The translations under genes and the position numbers were made by a program. Positions 4,285 to 63,145 of a stretch of DNA of 64,000 bases are shown one piece after another (positions within the stretch are counted from its first letter, which is position 1; each line of letters starts with the position of its first letter). Location of the stretch: the sequence record OR757454.1. One strand, written 5' to 3'. This DNA is from Escherichia phage BYEP02. The notes under the pieces are model-generated. The model did not search any database and was not told where the DNA came from. It saw only the letters and a program-made list of their open reading frames with translations.

Positions 4285-6612
4285 ATGATGGAACTAATTA
4301 CAGAATTATTTGACGAAGATACTACTCTTCCGATTACAAACTTAAATCCAAAGAAGAAAATACCACAAATTTTTTCAGTTCATGTTGATGACGCAATTGA
4401 ACAACCAGGCTTTCGTTTATGTACCTATACATCTGGAGGTGATACTAATCGTGATTTAAAGATGGGCGATAAAATGATGCACATTGTTCCTTTTACATTA
4501 ACTGCTAAAGGTTCAATTGCTAAATTGAAAGGTCTTGGTCCAAGCCCAATTAATTATATCAATTCAGTTTTTACTGTTGCAATGCAAACAATGCGTCAGT
4601 ATAAAATTGATGCCTGCATGCTTCGTATTCTTAAGTCTAAAACCGCTGGTCAAGCTCGACAAATTCAAGTTATTGCTGATAGACTTATCCGTAGTCGTTC
4701 AGGTGGCAGATACGTCCTTCTTAAGGAACTCTGGGATTATGATAAAAAGTATGCATATATTCTTATACATCGCAAAAATGTATCACTAGAAGACATTCCA
4801 GGAGTTCCGGAAATTAGTACCGAGCTCTTTACTAAAGTTGAATCGAAGGTCGGTGATGTTTATATCAATAAAGATACTGGAGCTCAAGTAACTAAAAATG
4901 AGGCAATTGCAGCATCTATTGCAAGGTCGGTGATGTTTATATCAATAAAGATACTGGAGCTCAAGTAACTAAAAATGAGGCAATTGCAGCATCTATTGCA
5001 CAAGAAAACGATAAACGTTCTGACCAAGCTGTAATCGTTAAAGTTAAAATTTCCCGTAGAGCAATTGCACAAAGTCAATCATTAGAGTCTTCTAGATTTG
5101 AAAGTGAATTATTCCAGAAGTATGAATCTACAGCAGCTAATTTTAATAAACCAGCTACTGCACCTTTAATTCCCGAAGCAGAAGAAATGAAAATTGGAAT
5201 TAATTCATTAGCTTCTAAAACTAAGGCAGCAAAAATCATTGCCGAAGGAACTGCAGATGAACTTCATTATGACTATAAATTCTTTTCAAAAAGTGAGGTT
5301 AATGAAGTTTCTGAAAAAATTAAAGATGTAATTCTTAATGCGATTAAAAATGAACCAACCACTTCAATAAAATGTTTAGAGAAATACGCAGCAGCTGTTA
5401 ATCAATTCTTTGAAGAATATAAAGATAATTGGCTTGATAAACATAATAAAACACGTAAAGGACAGCCAGATGAAGTCTGGGAAGAAATAACTAAAAATTC
5501 CTGGAACGCGACAAAAACTAAATTCCTCAAAAGAATGATTTATAGTTTCTCTGGAATTGGTGCAGGTCCAATGATTGATATTACTATTGCCCGTGATGGT
5601 TCTAAATATACTCCATCACAAAAGCGCGGCATTAGAGAGTATTGCGGTTCAGGATATACTGACATCAATAATCTTCTTTTAGGACGCTACAATCCAGAAC
5701 GATATGATGTAATGAGTGAAAAAGAAATTGAATCTGCTATAAATAACTTAGATTCAGCTTTTGAAAATGGTGACCGCATACCGGAAGGCATCACAGTTTA
5801 TCGTGCTCAAAGCATGACTGCTCCTATATACGAAGCATTAGTTAAAAATAAAGTATTCTATTTCAGAAATTTTGTATCTACTTCTTTAACTCCTATCATT
5901 TTTGGACGTTTTGGATAGTTAAAAATAAAGTATTCTATTTCAGAAATTTTGTATCTACTTCTTTAACTCCTATCATTTTTGGACGTTTTGGAATTACACA
6001 TGCTGGTATTGGTCTTTTAGAACCAGAAGCTCGCAATGAATTAACAGTTGATAAAAATGAAGAAGGAATAACTATTAATCCAAACGAAATAAGAGCGTAT
6101 AAAGAAAATCCTGAATACGTTAAAGTTCAAATAGGATGGGCAATTGATGGAGCAATCCAAACGAAATAAGAGCGTATAAAGAAAATCCTGAATACGTTAA
6201 AGTTCAAATAGGATGGGCAATTGATGGAGCTCATAAAGTTAATGTTGTATATCCAGGAAGTCTCGGAATAGCAACAGAAGCTGAAGTTATTCTACCGCGT
6301 GGATTGATGGTCAAAGTTAATAAAATAACTGATGCTTCTAATAATGACGGAACAACATCTAATAATACAAAACTCATTCAAGCTGAAGTTATGACCACGG
6401 AAGAGCTCACCGAATCGGTAATCTATGATGGAGACCATTTAATGGAAACTGGTGAATTGGTTGCAATGACAGGTGATATTGAAATAGAAGACAGAGTTGA
6501 CTTTGCATCATTTGTTTCATCAAATGTTAAACAGAAAGTAGAATCATCTCTTGGAATTATTGCGTCTTGCATAGATATTGCAAACATGCCTTACAAGTTC
6601 GTTCAAGGATAA
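4285..6612 (+). CDS. alt: ADP-ribosyltransferase Alt, interrupted by three 77-nt duplications
   Basis: N-terminus MELITELFDEDTTLPITNLNPKK recognised as T4 Alt; TATAAATA late promoter 21 nt upstream; total length fits about 682 aa plus three 77-nt inserts. Confidence 0.8.
4846..4999. repeat. 77-nt tandem duplication
   Basis: Period 77 verified; in alt. Confidence 0.9.
5841..5994. repeat. 77-nt tandem duplication
   Basis: Period 77 verified; in alt. Confidence 0.9.
6075..6228. repeat. 77-nt tandem duplication
   Basis: Period 77 verified; in alt. Confidence 0.85.
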
Positions 6613-59542: not shown

Positions 59543-60151
59543 ATGGATACTAAATTAGCTGAAATTTTTGAAGGAAAACATCCAAATTTTAGTACAGGAA
59601 AGCTGAAAGATAAAATAATAAAAGAAAATATTTTTCCATATGAGTGTGCAATTTGTAAAATTTCAAAATGGCAAAATAAGCATATTGTTCTGCAATTAGA
59701 CCATATTGACGGAAATAACAAAAATCATCTTAAATCAAATTTAAGATTATTATGTCCAAATTGCCATTCGCAAACTGATACTTTTGCTGGTAAAAATATT
59801 AAAAATAATAAAAAGCGTTATAATGTTAGTGATGAAGAAATTTTAAACGCATTATTAAATTCTGCTACTATATCATCTGCAATTACTTCATTAGGTTTAA
59901 GTAAAGGCGGAAACTATAAAAGATTCATTAAAATTGCTAATGATAATAAATTATATCATTTACTGGTAAATATTAATGAAAACATTTTAACTGATGAAAT
60001 TTACGAAGAATTAGTTAAAATTGATTATTCTAAATTTGGATGGGTTAGTAAAGCTGCTAAAATAATAGGTATAAGCCCACAAAAAGCTAGAAAATGGATA
60101 GAACGAAAGTGTCCAGAATTGATAGAACAATCTTTTTCACGTAATAAATAA
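59543..60151 (+). CDS. HNH homing endonuclease
   Basis: HNH motif HIDGNNKNHLKSNLRLLCPNCH; sits directly upstream of the tRNA cluster; MotA-box promoter upstream. Confidence 0.75.
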   Translation: MDTKLAEIFEGKHPNFSTGKLKDKIIKENIFPYECAICKISKWQNKHIVLQLDHIDGNNKNHLKSNLRLLCPNCHSQTDTFAGKNIKNNKKRYNVSDEEILNALLNSATISSAITSLGLSKGGNYKRFIKIANDNKLYHLLVNINENILTDEIYEELVKIDYSKFGWVSKAAKIIGISPQKARKWIERKCPELIEQSFSRNK

Positions 60152-60157
60152 TATAGA

Positions 60158-60244
60158 GCGAGAATGGTCAAATTGGTAAAGGCACAGCACTTAAAATGCT
60201 GCGGAATGATTTCCTTGTGGGTTCGAGTCCCACTTCTCGCACCA
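60158..60244 (+). tRNA. tRNA-Leu (anticodon TAA), type II
   Basis: Cloverleaf read by eye: anticodon loop CTTAAAA, long variable arm, GGTTCGAGTCC T-arm, CCA encoded. Confidence 0.8.
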
Positions 60245-60249
60245 AATTT

Positions 60250-60323
<74 letters not shown>

Positions 60324-60477
60324 ATTTAATTTACTCCGTGTAGCTCAGTTTGGTAGAGCGTCTGCTTTGGGAGCAGAATGTCGCAGGTTCAAATCCTGCA
60401 ATTTAATTTACTCCGTGTAGCTCAGTTTGGTAGAGCGCCTGATTTGGGATCAGGAGGTCCAAGGTTCAAATCCTTGT
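60324..60477. repeat. 77-nt tandem duplication (diverged copies) over tRNA-Pro
   Basis: Period 77; 10 mismatches in the 3' 40 nt, arranged as compensatory pairs in the anticodon and T stems. Confidence 0.85.
60334..60400 (+). pseudogene. truncated tRNA-Pro-like copy lacking the 3' acceptor strand
   Basis: Copy 1 of a 77-nt duplication; 5' 37 nt identical to tRNA-Pro, anticodon and T stems differ by compensatory changes. Confidence 0.6.
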
Positions 60478-60484
60478 ATGGAGA
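60411..60484 (+). tRNA. tRNA-Pro (anticodon TGG)
   Basis: Acceptor CTCCGTG/TATGGAG (G-U pairs); anticodon loop TTTGGGA; T-arm GGTTCAAATCC. Confidence 0.75.
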
Positions 60485-60486
60485 CT

Positions 60487-60576
60487 GGAGGCGTGGCAGA
60501 GTGGTTTAATGCACCGGTCTTGAAAACCGGCAGTCGCTCCGGCGACTCATAGGTTCAAATCCTATCGCCTCCGCCA
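60487..60576 (+). tRNA. tRNA-Ser (anticodon TGA), type II
   Basis: Acceptor GGAGGCG/CGCCTCC; anticodon loop CTTGAAA; long variable arm; CCA encoded. Confidence 0.8.
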
Positions 60577-60685
60577 GTTTTGCTGATTTAGCTCAGTAGG
60601 TAGAGCACAGTCGCTCCGGCGACTCATAGGTTCAAATCCTATCGCCTCCGCCAGTTTTTGCTGATTTAGCTCAGTAGGTAGAGCA
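60532..60685. repeat. 77-nt tandem duplication over the tRNA-Ser/tRNA-Thr junction
   Basis: Period 77; one T indel between copies; makes a chimeric pseudo-tRNA. Confidence 0.9.
60583..60653 (+). pseudogene. chimeric tRNA fragment (Thr 5' part fused to Ser 3' half)
   Basis: Created by the 77-nt duplication at 60532-60685; no matching acceptor stem. Confidence 0.6.
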
Positions 60686-60735
60686 CCTCACTTGTAATGA
60701 GGACGTCGGCGGTTCGATTCCGTCAATCAGCACCA
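60660..60735 (+). tRNA. tRNA-Thr (anticodon TGT)
   Basis: Acceptor GCTGATT/AATCAGC; anticodon loop CTTGTAA; T-arm GGTTCGATTCC; CCA encoded. Confidence 0.8.
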
Positions 60736-60736
60736 A

Positions 60737-60811
60737 GGCCCTGTAGCTGGAAGGTTCAAGCAAGCGACTCATAATCGCCAGATGGTGGTTCAATTCCACC
60801 CAGGGCCACCA
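60737..60811 (+). tRNA. tRNA with anticodon CAT (Ile2-type or Met)
   Basis: Acceptor GGCCCTG/CAGGGCC; loop CTCATAA; T-arm GGTTCAATTCC; D-arm atypical. Confidence 0.6.
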
Positions 60812-60820
60812 AATTAATTT

Positions 60821-60907
60821 GGGGAGTTATCCCGTAGAGGTAGCGGTGTGGACTGTAAATTCATTGTCATTGCGACTCGGGTGGTTCGACTCCACCACTC
60901 CCCACCA
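60821..60907 (+). tRNA. tRNA-Tyr (anticodon GTA), type II
   Basis: Acceptor GGGGAGT/ACTCCCC; anticodon stem GTGGA/TTCAT with two G-U pairs; loop CTGTAAA; long variable arm; T-arm GGTTCGACTCC. Confidence 0.55.
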
Positions 60908-60911
60908 ATTT

Positions 60912-60986
60912 GGATGTGTAGCTCAATGGCAGAGCGATCGCCTGTTAAGCGATTGGTTATAGGTTCGAATCCTATCACGTCCGCCA
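60912..60986 (+). tRNA. tRNA-Asn (anticodon GTT)
   Basis: Acceptor GGATGTG/CACGTCC; D-arm GCTC..GAGC; anticodon stem ATCGC/GCGAT, loop CTGTTAA; T-arm GGTTCGAATCC. Confidence 0.65.
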
Positions 60987-61100
60987 AATTTGTGACAACT
61001 GTCACATTAATATCTACTTGACGCGATTATAGGGGTTGAACTGATCACTCTTCTCTTAATTTCGTGTGAAGACATCTTGATTGTTGGAGTAGGTATTAAT

Positions 61101-61176
61101 GTGGCCGTAGTTCAGTTGGTAGAACTCGAGATTGTGATTCTCGTAGTCATGGGTTCGACTCCCATCGGTCACCCCA
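61101..61176 (+). tRNA. tRNA-His (anticodon GTG)
   Basis: Acceptor GTGGCCG/CGGTCAC; anticodon stem CGAGA/TCTCG, loop TTGTGAT; T-arm GGTTCGACTCC. Confidence 0.7.
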
Positions 61177-61180
61177 ATTA

Positions 61181-61256
61181 CGGGGCATAGCTCAGAAGGA
61201 AGAGCAAGGACCTTCTAAGTCCTAGGTCGTAGGTTCGATCCCTACTGCCTCGACCA
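61181..61256 (+). tRNA. tRNA-Arg (anticodon TCT)
   Basis: Acceptor CGGGGCA/TGCCTCG; anticodon stem AGGAC/GTCCT, loop CTTCTAA; T-arm GGTTCGATCCC. Confidence 0.75.
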
Positions 61257-61274: not shown

Positions 61275-61625
61275 ATGAAAGGTAATGTTTATTTAGTAGT
61301 TCATGATTTAACATTTTACTTCAATGAATATGAAAAACATATCTCATTTCGTGAAATTAATTTACTTTATCAACATGCGGATTATATTTATATTCAAAAC
61401 GAATTTGGTCATTGGCAATTTCTCAAAAATCGTTCATTTGGCTTAGATGGTTACGAATACTTTGAACGTAAAGACCTTTTAGATAAAATTCCGTTATCTA
61501 CGCAATATCAAAATCACAAATCTTTATATAAATGCCGTCCAATTCGAAATGTTGAATCCGCGTATGAAGCAATTGATTTATGGCGTGAACGCCGTAAACA
61601 GATTGATGCTTTAAAAGAATATTAA
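61275..61625 (+). CDS. hypothetical protein (116 aa)
   Basis: ORF with GAGGAAAA RBS directly after tRNA-Arg. Confidence 0.5.
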   Translation: MKGNVYLVVHDLTFYFNEYEKHISFREINLLYQHADYIYIQNEFGHWQFLKNRSFGLDGYEYFERKDLLDKIPLSTQYQNHKSLYKCRPIRNVESAYEAIDLWRERRKQIDALKEY

Positions 61626-61885
61626 GAAACCGGGTCGCTACCGGTAAGTCGTCGGACTGATGTTCCCTGAGTAAGGAATTGCGTTAATAATCTTTGCGTT
61701 TATTGATGCCCTCTTACATCACAGCAGAAACGGCGCACCGAATTATCGATTCGAGGAAATATCTTTGCCGTAAGCCGAGTAGCGTTTTTGACGGAACGTT
61801 CGGATATGGTCGAGATATGGCCTTTTAAAAATATTGAGTAGCGTCAACTGCTTAATAACCGGGTTCGAATCCCGGCGTTTCGTAC
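61626..61885 (+). ncRNA. candidate structured RNA with a tRNA-like T-arm at its 3' end
   Basis: About 260 nt with no ORF of 60 aa or more on either strand; 3' CCGGGTTCGAATCCCGG T-arm followed by CGTTTC complementary to the 5' GAAAC. Confidence 0.3.
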
Positions 61886-61934
61886 AAACACTTGCCTTAG
61901 CAGGTGGAACCCCGACAAGGTTGCCGCAAGGCTT

Positions 61935-61962
61935 AGCCCCGACCGAAAGGTTGGGGCTTTTT
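61935..61962 (+). terminator. terminator-like hairpin AGCCCCGACCGAAAGGTTGGGGCT + T5 (81-nt unit, copy 1)
   Basis: GNRA-loop hairpin plus U-tract. Confidence 0.55.
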
Positions 61963-62015
61963 GGTATAACACTTGCCTTAGCAGGTGGAACCCCGACAAG
62001 GTTGCCGCAAGGCTT

Positions 62016-62043
62016 AGCCCCAGCCGAAAGGTTGGGGCTTTTT
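62016..62043 (+). terminator. terminator-like hairpin, 81-nt unit copy 2
   Basis: Same hairpin with two substitutions, plus U-tract. Confidence 0.55.
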
Positions 62044-62045
62044 AG

Positions 62046-62053
62046 TATAAATA
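62046..62053 (+). promoter_or_regulatory. late promoter core TATAAATA (internal-protein-like gene)
   Basis: Exact motif 37 nt upstream of ATG 62090. Confidence 0.55.
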
Positions 62054-62089: not shown

Positions 62090-62563
62090 ATGAAATCATA
62101 TGCTCAATTTTTAAATGAAGCGGTGTTAAATGAAGCATCTAGCACTGAAATTCAAGCTGTTGCAAAAGCTGCCATTGCCGCGGGTAAATATTCCTATAAA
62201 GATGCTTCCGATGAATCACGATTCCAATTTGCTCGTGATATGAAAGCCGAAGGATTTACAGGGAATGCAGTTAGTATGGCTTGGAAAAGTTTAGTTGCTA
62301 CTGGAGCTGCTTTTGCAAAGGCTTCAGGTAAACCTGCTCCTAAGGCTGACCCTAAAGCAGCACAAGAAAAAAATATTGCTAAAGGAATTATCTCTAGGTA
62401 TGAAGCAATTCTTAAAGAACTTTTGATAATTAAGACCGAAGGCCAGAAACTTGCGCGTGCTTATAGTTTCAAAGATAATCCACATGCTCATGACCTAGAG
62501 TATGTTGAAGACCTCCAAAAAATCATCAAAGACCGCATTTGGTCTGCTAAACAAATCAAATAA
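62090..62563 (+). CDS. internal-protein-like (IPII/IPIII-type) capsid-targeted protein (157 aa)
   Basis: N-terminus MKSYAQFLNEA resembles the T4 internal-protein capsid-targeting sequence with an L-x-E protease site; TATAAATA 37 nt upstream; terminator downstream. Confidence 0.5.
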   Translation: MKSYAQFLNEAVLNEASSTEIQAVAKAAIAAGKYSYKDASDESRFQFARDMKAEGFTGNAVSMAWKSLVATGAAFAKASGKPAPKADPKAAQEKNIAKGIISRYEAILKELLIIKTEGQKLARAYSFKDNPHAHDLEYVEDLQKIIKDRIWSAKQIK

Positions 62564-62570
62564 CATTCTT

Positions 62571-62599
62571 AGCCCCGACCAAAAGGTTGGGGCTTTTTG
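62571..62599 (+). terminator. intrinsic terminator AGCCCCGACCAAAAGGTTGGGGCT + T5 after the internal-protein-like gene
   Basis: Third copy of the same hairpin family 8 nt after the stop. Confidence 0.65.
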
Positions 62600-62804: not shown

Positions 62805-63145
62805 ATGGATAATTACGGCGAACTGTTCAACTTCTTTATGAAATGCGTTTCAGAAGATTTCGGTCGTACAGTGAATGATATTAAAGTCATCGGTCCTGAC
62901 CATCCAACTTCTTTATGAAATGTGTTTCAGAAGATTTTGGTCGTACAGTGAATGATATTAAAGTTATCGGTCCTGATCATCCGATGTTTGAAACTTACGC
63001 AGTAATGGGTAATGAAGATGGTCAGTGGTATACTGTAAAGGTTGTGATTAACATGTTCACTGCTGAAGGTTATGTTAAACTGTCTTCTAAAGTTTACCAT
63101 GATAACGATGAAATCGCAGAAGAATATTTCAATAATATGAAATAA
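62805..63145 (+). CDS. hypothetical protein (about 88 aa), one 77-nt duplication inside
   Basis: MDNYGELFNFFMKCVSEDFGRTVNDIKVIGPDHP...; early promoter upstream. Confidence 0.5.
62828..62981. repeat. 77-nt tandem duplication
   Basis: Period 77 verified; 4 C/T differences, all at third codon positions; in ORF 62805. Confidence 0.9.

Follow-up and report, generated by a model that had tools for sequence, protein, structure and literature searches.

The question raised by this locus is what is encoded in the 260 nucleotides at 61626-61885 of the window (the whole 64-kb stretch of DNA that was analysed). A preliminary description had proposed one stable RNA with paired ends, forming with a T-arm a tRNA-like terminal domain around an insert of about 200 nt. 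The elements on which this proposal was built are all in place: GAAAC at 61626-30, the 5' hairpin CCGG-GTCGCTA-CCGG at 61630-44, the T-arm CCGGG-TTCGAAT-CCCGG at 61859-61875 and CGTTTC directly after it at 61876-81. The location after the tRNA cluster also stands, ARAGORN giving ten tRNAs on the + strand (60158-61256) and neither tRNA nor tmRNA within the 260-nt region. The absence of a tmRNA-style tag frame agrees with ARAGORN and Rfam, which give no tmRNA. ORFs of 60 aa or more are absent from the region, with the caveat of an 80-aa mechanical ORF that starts at 61834 (TTG), leaves the region and runs out through a duplicated terminator module.

The stretch 61600-61900 was compared by BLASTN with 50,697 phage records, where about 800 records matched, 74 of them at 99% identity or more. 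The matches listed were mostly Tequatrovirus and related Tevenvirinae, and the source of the window is a T4-like phage of the genus Tequatrovirus. T4 and its relatives have been known since the 1970s to make two stable RNAs from the end of the tRNA gene cluster. The T4 tRNA-region record X03016 (Broida and Abelson, 1985) is 98.5% identical to 61622-61883 and carries annotations of species 2 RNA (4615-4734) and species 1 RNA (4741-4877). Phage Aplg8, 100% identical, has in this stretch the ncRNAs rnaD ("species 2 RNA") and, after it, rnaC ("species 1 RNA"), and both are annotated at the homologous position in RB68 and in the T4 RefSeq. The ends of the two RNAs were carried over by homology, through alignment to X03016, and annotations vary by about 1 nt at these ends. 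The rnaC alignment to 4741-4877 is gapless with 2 substitutions, and that of rnaD to 4615-4734 contains one 1-nt indel and a few substitutions. A profile match identified one copy of each RNA in the window. The locus is laid out as follows.

61622..61740, + strand: rnaD (species 2 RNA), about 119 nt, assigned by X03016 homology and by the annotations in Aplg8, RB68 and the T4 RefSeq
61741..61746, + strand: A/U-rich spacer AAUUAU, 6 nt, between rnaD and rnaC
61747..61883, + strand: rnaC (species 1 RNA), 137 nt encoded, CCA not encoded, assigned by X03016 homology and annotations
61887..62050, + strand: 81-bp module present twice in tandem, with an intrinsic-terminator hairpin at the end of each copy (TRF and terminator scan)

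The region almost certainly comprises two separate known stable RNAs, at the tail of the + strand tRNA operon and in a unit that ends at the terminator or terminators from 61935. A stable processed RNA "in the manner of the T4 tRNA-region stable RNAs" had been suggested, and by homology and annotation these are exactly those RNAs. The rnaD and rnaC of T4-like phages were already known and the stretch contains no single new RNA.

The elements of rnaC are listed next, including the two apical loops discussed further below.

61747..61753, + strand: 5' strand of the acceptor-like stem, CGAUUCG, pairing with 61876-61882 (CGUUUCG), 7 bp
61754..61823, + strand: arm I, a long interrupted hairpin, 14 of 20 pairs covarying
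61788-61793, + strand: arm I apical loop UUGACG, 6 nt, invariant in 25 of 25 sequences
61824..61831, + strand: A-rich single-stranded linker (UUUAAAAA)
61832..61857, + strand: arm II, a 10-bp hairpin, always 26 nt, 8 of 10 pairs covarying
61842-61847, + strand: arm II loop CGUCAA, 6 nt, invariant in 25 of 25 sequences
61859..61875, + strand: T-arm CCGGG-UUCGAAU-CCCGG
61876..61887, + strand: 3' strand of the acceptor-like stem (61876-82), discriminator U (61883) and trailer ACAA (61884-87), invariant across six genera

The rnaC alignment drew on six genera and on viral contigs and comprised 25 distinct sequences. Pairs were counted on a curated structure after RNAalifold, and the controls were partners slid by 1-3 columns and 500 shuffles. 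In this structure 98.7% of the cells were paired versus 36-45% with slid partners, and 24 of the 46 pairs changed on both sides versus 2-6 when slid; none of the 500 shuffles matched the result. The minimum free energy (MFE) of rnaC was -50.1 kcal/mol (z = -4.4). The structure has strong covariation support and is new here.

The acceptor-like stem contains two invariant U-U mismatches, and its third pair (61749/61880) is split between A-U (12) and G-C (13) among the 25 distinct sequences. Arm I measures 69-71 nt in all homologues, including four sequences which are only 42-44% identical to the window in this arm. The linker is 7-10 nt long and contains an AAAA run in 24 of the 25 distinct sequences, the exception being PG7 (UCAUAAGA), and arm II corresponds to the 'pot. 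stem-loop' of X03016. The helix AGG/CCU is invariant and so gives no covariation signal. The middle pair of the T-arm is G-C, U-A or A-U among homologues, a compensatory variation which places this arm beyond chance, and the T-loop presents 5 variants. Two of these, UGCAUUC and UGCAUGC, replace UUCGAAU while the T-stem is kept, as identified in Kc304 (L004, 1512-1649), L032, L036 and L038. The whole is a tRNA-derived scaffold, with an acceptor-like stem stacked on the T-arm and with a 70-nt arm and a 26-nt arm where a tRNA has the D and anticodon arms.

The second RNA, rnaD, is built from the following elements.

61629..61645, + strand: P1 hairpin, in which a 5-bp stem (ACCGG/CCGGU) closes a 7-nt loop, GUCGCUA, that is invariant
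61648..61654, + strand: 5' strand of P2, GUCGUCG, pairing with 61731-61738 (RNAalifold)
61661..61664, + strand: 5' strand of P3, pairing with 61723-61726
61668..61721, + strand: P4, variable apical domain, 4 of 6 basal pairs covarying
61723..61738, + strand: 3' strands of P3 (61723-26) and P2 (61731-38), with an invariant GAAA between them

Twenty-four distinct sequences were aligned for rnaD and treated by RNAalifold and pair count, giving 97.9% of cells paired versus 29-50% when slid, 9 covarying pairs of 22 and 0 of 500 shuffles as good. The structure of rnaD is thereby strongly supported by covariation and, like that of rnaC, is new here. In P1, where all cells are paired (100%), three of the five pairs changed on both sides, so that this hairpin is also beyond chance; its pair 61629/61645 is A-U in 15 sequences, G-C in 5 and G-U in 4. 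P2 is almost invariant and hence without covariation signal, and in P3 two of the four pairs covary (U-A, A-U, G-C). Invariant junction strands are GGACUGA (5' of P3), UCCCUG (between P3 and P4), UCAC and GAAA (61727-30). P4 occurs in at least four or five unrelated versions in different phages. The 3' end reads ...GCGCACCA in T4 versus ...CACCG in the window, where the terminal A is not encoded. The fold of rnaD differs from that of rnaC and consists of a 5' hairpin, a conserved P2/P3 core, a freely replaceable apical domain and an ...ACC(A) end.

Two known motifs were considered for the rnaD core and discarded. A hammerhead reading of CUGAUG...GAAAC is contradicted by position 9, which is U or G and not A, by G8, which is not conserved in A5-4, and by the strands before CUGA and after GAAA, which pair together (P2) and give a two-way junction; no hammerhead hit was obtained in Rfam at E <= 10. 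A K-turn reading of the internal loop GACUGA/GAAA was rejected as not canonical. An obligatory pairing of CGCUAC in the rnaD loop with GUAGCG of rnaC is unlikely, since the RNAs occur independently.

These structures bear directly on the proposal of a single stable RNA of about 260 nt, tmRNA-like or tRNA-like, with 5' GAAAC and 3' GUUUC paired by the T-arm around a 200-nt insert. The ends are indeed complementary and the MFE fold of the 264-nt sequence uses a long-range helix between them, as a matter of thermodynamics only; this helix would break the covarying T-arm. The 3' CGTTTC finds its partner not in the 5' GAAAC but in 61747-61753 of rnaC itself, to which 61876-61882 pair with a compensatory change from A-U to G-C. 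The last two bases of GAAAC sit in the rnaD hairpin, 61629 covarying with 61645, and the whole of 61629-61633 is taken up by the covarying P1, although the A-to-G variation at 61629 would still permit a G-U pair with the 3' end. A transient dimeric precursor of both RNAs is probable given their co-transcription, whereas T4 is annotated with two RNAs, one of about 120 nt and one of about 140 nt, each RNA is found without the other in other phages, the T4 Northern blot used an rnaC-specific probe (PMC9697503) and a tmRNA was not found by ARAGORN or Rfam. Pairing of the ends into a single RNA is rejected because of the covariation and of the independent occurrence of rnaC and rnaD, and this proposal is highly improbable. 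The comparison across homologues that had been recommended as a check gave conserved structures in two RNAs (24 of 46 pairs in rnaC and 9 of 22 in rnaD) with a 6-nt spacer between them. Of the tRNA-like terminal domain, the T-arm and acceptor part stands, within rnaC; its formation from the ends of the whole 260-nt stretch does not.

The same substitutions bear on the reading of the region as a hidden small protein-coding gene. There is a mechanical ORF of 44 aa that starts with TTG (61694-61828), and one of 34 aa on the minus strand. The former spans the spacer and both RNAs and crosses the rnaD domain that is swapped for unrelated sequence in other phages, and the substitutions are compensatory in RNA helices and not codon-like. 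The probability of such a gene is close to nil.

Returning to the two-RNA reading, the apical loops of the two rnaC arms are perfectly complementary (UUGACG and CGUCAA, a chance of about 1 in 4096), and both 6-nt loops are fixed in the 25 distinct sequences while their closing stems covary. The two loops probably kiss, closing the body of rnaC into a ring, as judged from their complementarity, their invariance and the fixed lengths of the arms. As both loops never vary, the contact gives no covariation. Searches of viral contigs, metagenomes and bacterial genomes for more divergent homologues, in which the loops might covary, yielded only close T4-like relatives, false hits in coding sequence or nothing. 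The single-sequence MFE fold of VPA32 presents an extended duplex of 17-19 bp between arm I and arm II; as a general structure this duplex was rejected, being not conserved in K305 or L025 and in conflict with the covariation of the hairpins, and of the pairing between the arms only the complementarity of the 6-nt loops was retained.

The comparison with T4 is the closest. The same genes are found in the same order (rnaD then rnaC) and in the same place, closing the tRNA cluster on its 3' side and followed by the terminator, with minor differences in the window: an inserted 116-aa ORF, the terminal A of the rnaD CCA not encoded and the terminator module doubled.

Known RNA families were searched with Rfam, another check that had been recommended. 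Only tRNAs were identified in the window with Rfam 15 families at the gathering threshold, and in 61622-61885 neither a tmRNA nor any other credible family was obtained at E <= 10, neither RNA matching any family. The best tRNA-type alignment in the region was tRNA-Sec with 16.6 bits (E = 2.9, gathering score 47). Of the records listed among the approximately 800 matches, most have no annotation for the rnaC/rnaD stretch or label it 'hypothetical protein', and in a few GenBank records rnaC is labelled tRNA-Met (PG7, 95 nt), tRNA-Lys or tRNA-OTHER. Finding rnaD and rnaC in the window is no discovery as such, being known RNAs annotated in X03016; the lack of an Rfam match means that in most of the roughly 800 genomes automatic annotation either misses the two RNAs or labels them as odd tRNAs or 'hypothetical protein'.

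The likeness of rnaC to tRNA (RF00005) comprises the 7-bp acceptor-type stem, the 5-bp T-arm, the UUCGAAU loop and the discriminator base, along with a gene embedded among tRNA genes and an arm that abuts the T-arm as the variable arm of class II tRNAs does. In contrast with tRNA, rnaC has 137 nt, no D-arm or anticodon arm and two invariant U-U mismatches in its acceptor, it is missed by ARAGORN and falls below the Rfam tRNA threshold, and in some lineages its T-loop is replaced by UGCAUUC or UGCAUGC. A tRNA identity was rejected, there being no cloverleaf call and a covariation-supported structure without anticodon arm. As in the tRNA-like domain of tmRNA, the ends of rnaC build an acceptor/T-arm module that encloses a large insertion, a likeness of topology only. 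The tmRNA identity was also rejected, with ARAGORN and Rfam negative and acceptor pair 3 being A-U or G-C; rnaC lacks G3-U70, the tag frame and the series of pseudoknots, and has about one third of the size of a tmRNA. YrlA and other Y-RNA-like RNAs of bacteria and phages and the viral tRNA-like structures are comparable in concept, as stable non-coding RNAs, in some cases encoded by phages, with a module that mimics tRNA. In YrlA the module lies within the RNA and the Ro-binding helix is made by the ends, whereas the ends of rnaC form the acceptor stem.

Both RNAs are co-oriented with the tRNAs (60158-61256, +) and lie upstream of the terminator hairpins, identified by the terminator scan at 61935-58 and 62016-39. 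The tRNA/stable-RNA transcription unit ends with these modules, which number two in the window and one in T4 and in RB68. The T4 tRNA cluster is presumably one primary transcript of about 1.75 kb, with a presumed end 3' of the species I gene (PMC2330249). In T4 rnaC and rnaD are classed as late RNAs, with a Northern blot with an RNAC probe as support, and this blot shows the accumulation of a stable species 1 RNA of about 140 nt (PMC9697503). The terminator hairpin (AGCCCC..GGTTGGGGCT and a T-run) occurs in three near-identical copies within 700 bp (61935-61958, 62016-62039 and 62571-62594), the third being 3' of a 157-aa ORF at 62090-62563 (phrog_2280).

The AAUUA of the spacer is conserved in genomes that contain both RNAs, and AAUUAU is a candidate endonuclease site that would separate the two halves of a dimeric precursor. 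A transient dimeric precursor holding both RNAs is plausible. It would be the species 2-species 1 dimer that is reportedly cut by RNase E (1980s literature), and the AAUUA spacer fits the RAUUW preference of this enzyme. The tRNA maturation machinery needs, at a minimum, an acceptor stem with a T-arm as its substrate. The rnaC minihelix could be recognized as such a substrate, with RNase P acting at the 5' end, trimming at the 3' end and CCA addition, and this would account for the excision of rnaC next to the tRNAs and for its stability. On the rnaD side, a 116-aa ORF (phrog_3355, 61275-61625) lies between tRNA-Arg and rnaD, while in T4 tRNA-Arg abuts rnaD; RB68 carries this ORF too (RB68_139). 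With this ORF in between, the 5' end of rnaD is here independent of the 3' end of an adjacent tRNA.

Each RNA was also identified alone. Phages of Karamvirus, Winklervirus and Kanagawavirus contain rnaC without rnaD, whereas rnaD without rnaC was found in DK-13, Providencia phage PSTCR6, CLB_P2 and two Vequintavirinae phages. Wherever tRNA genes are annotated or detected, the RNA found alone adjoins them or sits among them: in the Karamvirus records rnaC is flanked by tRNA-Trp and tRNA-Gly, in Kc304 it immediately precedes tRNA-Trp, and the rnaD copy of LTH01 is directly 3' of tRNA-Met. The occurrence of rnaD in Vequintavirinae is new here, with full-length homologues in the rV5-like phages A5-4 (L019, 602-720) and LTH01 (L020, 606-705); this is a myovirus lineage unrelated to the T4-like phages. 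The P4 version of A5-4 is the same as that of the Dhakavirus phage CLB_P2, and this common apical domain suggests that the rnaD gene was transferred horizontally between phage families. Scans of viral contigs, metagenomes and bacterial genomes returned close T4-like relatives, protein-coding false positives or nothing.

The spread of the two RNAs is also relevant to the view that they are decayed tRNA remnants or spacer with no function of their own, conserved through their operon, processing or terminator context. The tRNA region is dispensable in laboratory hosts, rnaC clearly descends from a tRNA-like ancestor and partial tRNA duplications are found nearby (60341-60399), all of which speak for decay. 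Decay is hard to reconcile with loops that stay invariant, arms of fixed length and 24 compensatory pairs, all kept despite an arm I at 42% identity, with the movement of rnaD between phage families as a unit or with the accumulation of the RNAs as stable species in T4 (PMC9697503). This view is very unlikely.

The function of both RNAs was called unknown in 2010 (PMC3014915), 2022 (PMC9697503) and 2025 (PMC12685909). In the T4-like phage BW1 all three lines that adapted to ECOR34, a new E. coli host, reportedly share a single SNP, which is in rnaD (PMC12685909); this sole functional clue hints at a role in host range. It is proposed with low confidence that the two RNAs act as mimics of tRNA-pathway substrates, binding or titrating a tRNA-binding factor of the host or the phage; in neither RNA is there a clear imitation of the anticodon loop of a particular tRNA. 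Such a mimic or decoy would be a host-specific accessory rather than an essential function. The full reading, in which rnaC is a tRNA-derived, kissing-locked ring with tRNA-like processing and takes part with the mobile rnaD in a host-specific interaction, as decoy or trigger towards a tRNA-directed factor or defence, is possible but doubtful. If it were true, rnaC and rnaD would be well-defined, covariation-supported families without an Rfam match. The comparative structures offer experimental handles: in rnaC the minihelix and the two length-locked arms with complementary loops, in rnaD the core and the swappable domain.

Some further observations concern the neighbourhood. The SegB homing endonuclease recognizes the DNA of the conserved T-psi-C motif (PMC2330249). 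This motif is replaced in some rnaC T-loops, and its loss might for that reason affect endonuclease targeting. The tRNA-Gln that is directly 5' of tRNA-Leu in T4 and Aplg8 is missing at 60100-60160, and a coding region ends in its place, just upstream of tRNA-Leu in the window. Four two-copy tandem duplications of 77-81 bp were identified by TRF within the tRNA cluster or close to it, at 60322-60474, 60531-60686, 61887-62050 and 62828-62982. The first comprises a diverged, 3'-truncated second copy of a tRNA-Pro-like gene (Rfam partial tRNA at 60341-60399), the second repeats the 3' half of tRNA-Ser and the 5' half of tRNA-Thr, and the third doubles the terminator module 3' of rnaC. In slur03, the closest genome, the segment 60140-62100 is 231 bp shorter, and the three duplications located in this segment appear to be absent there. 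The duplications are probably real recombination products and not assembly artefacts, because their copies are only 90-98% identical.
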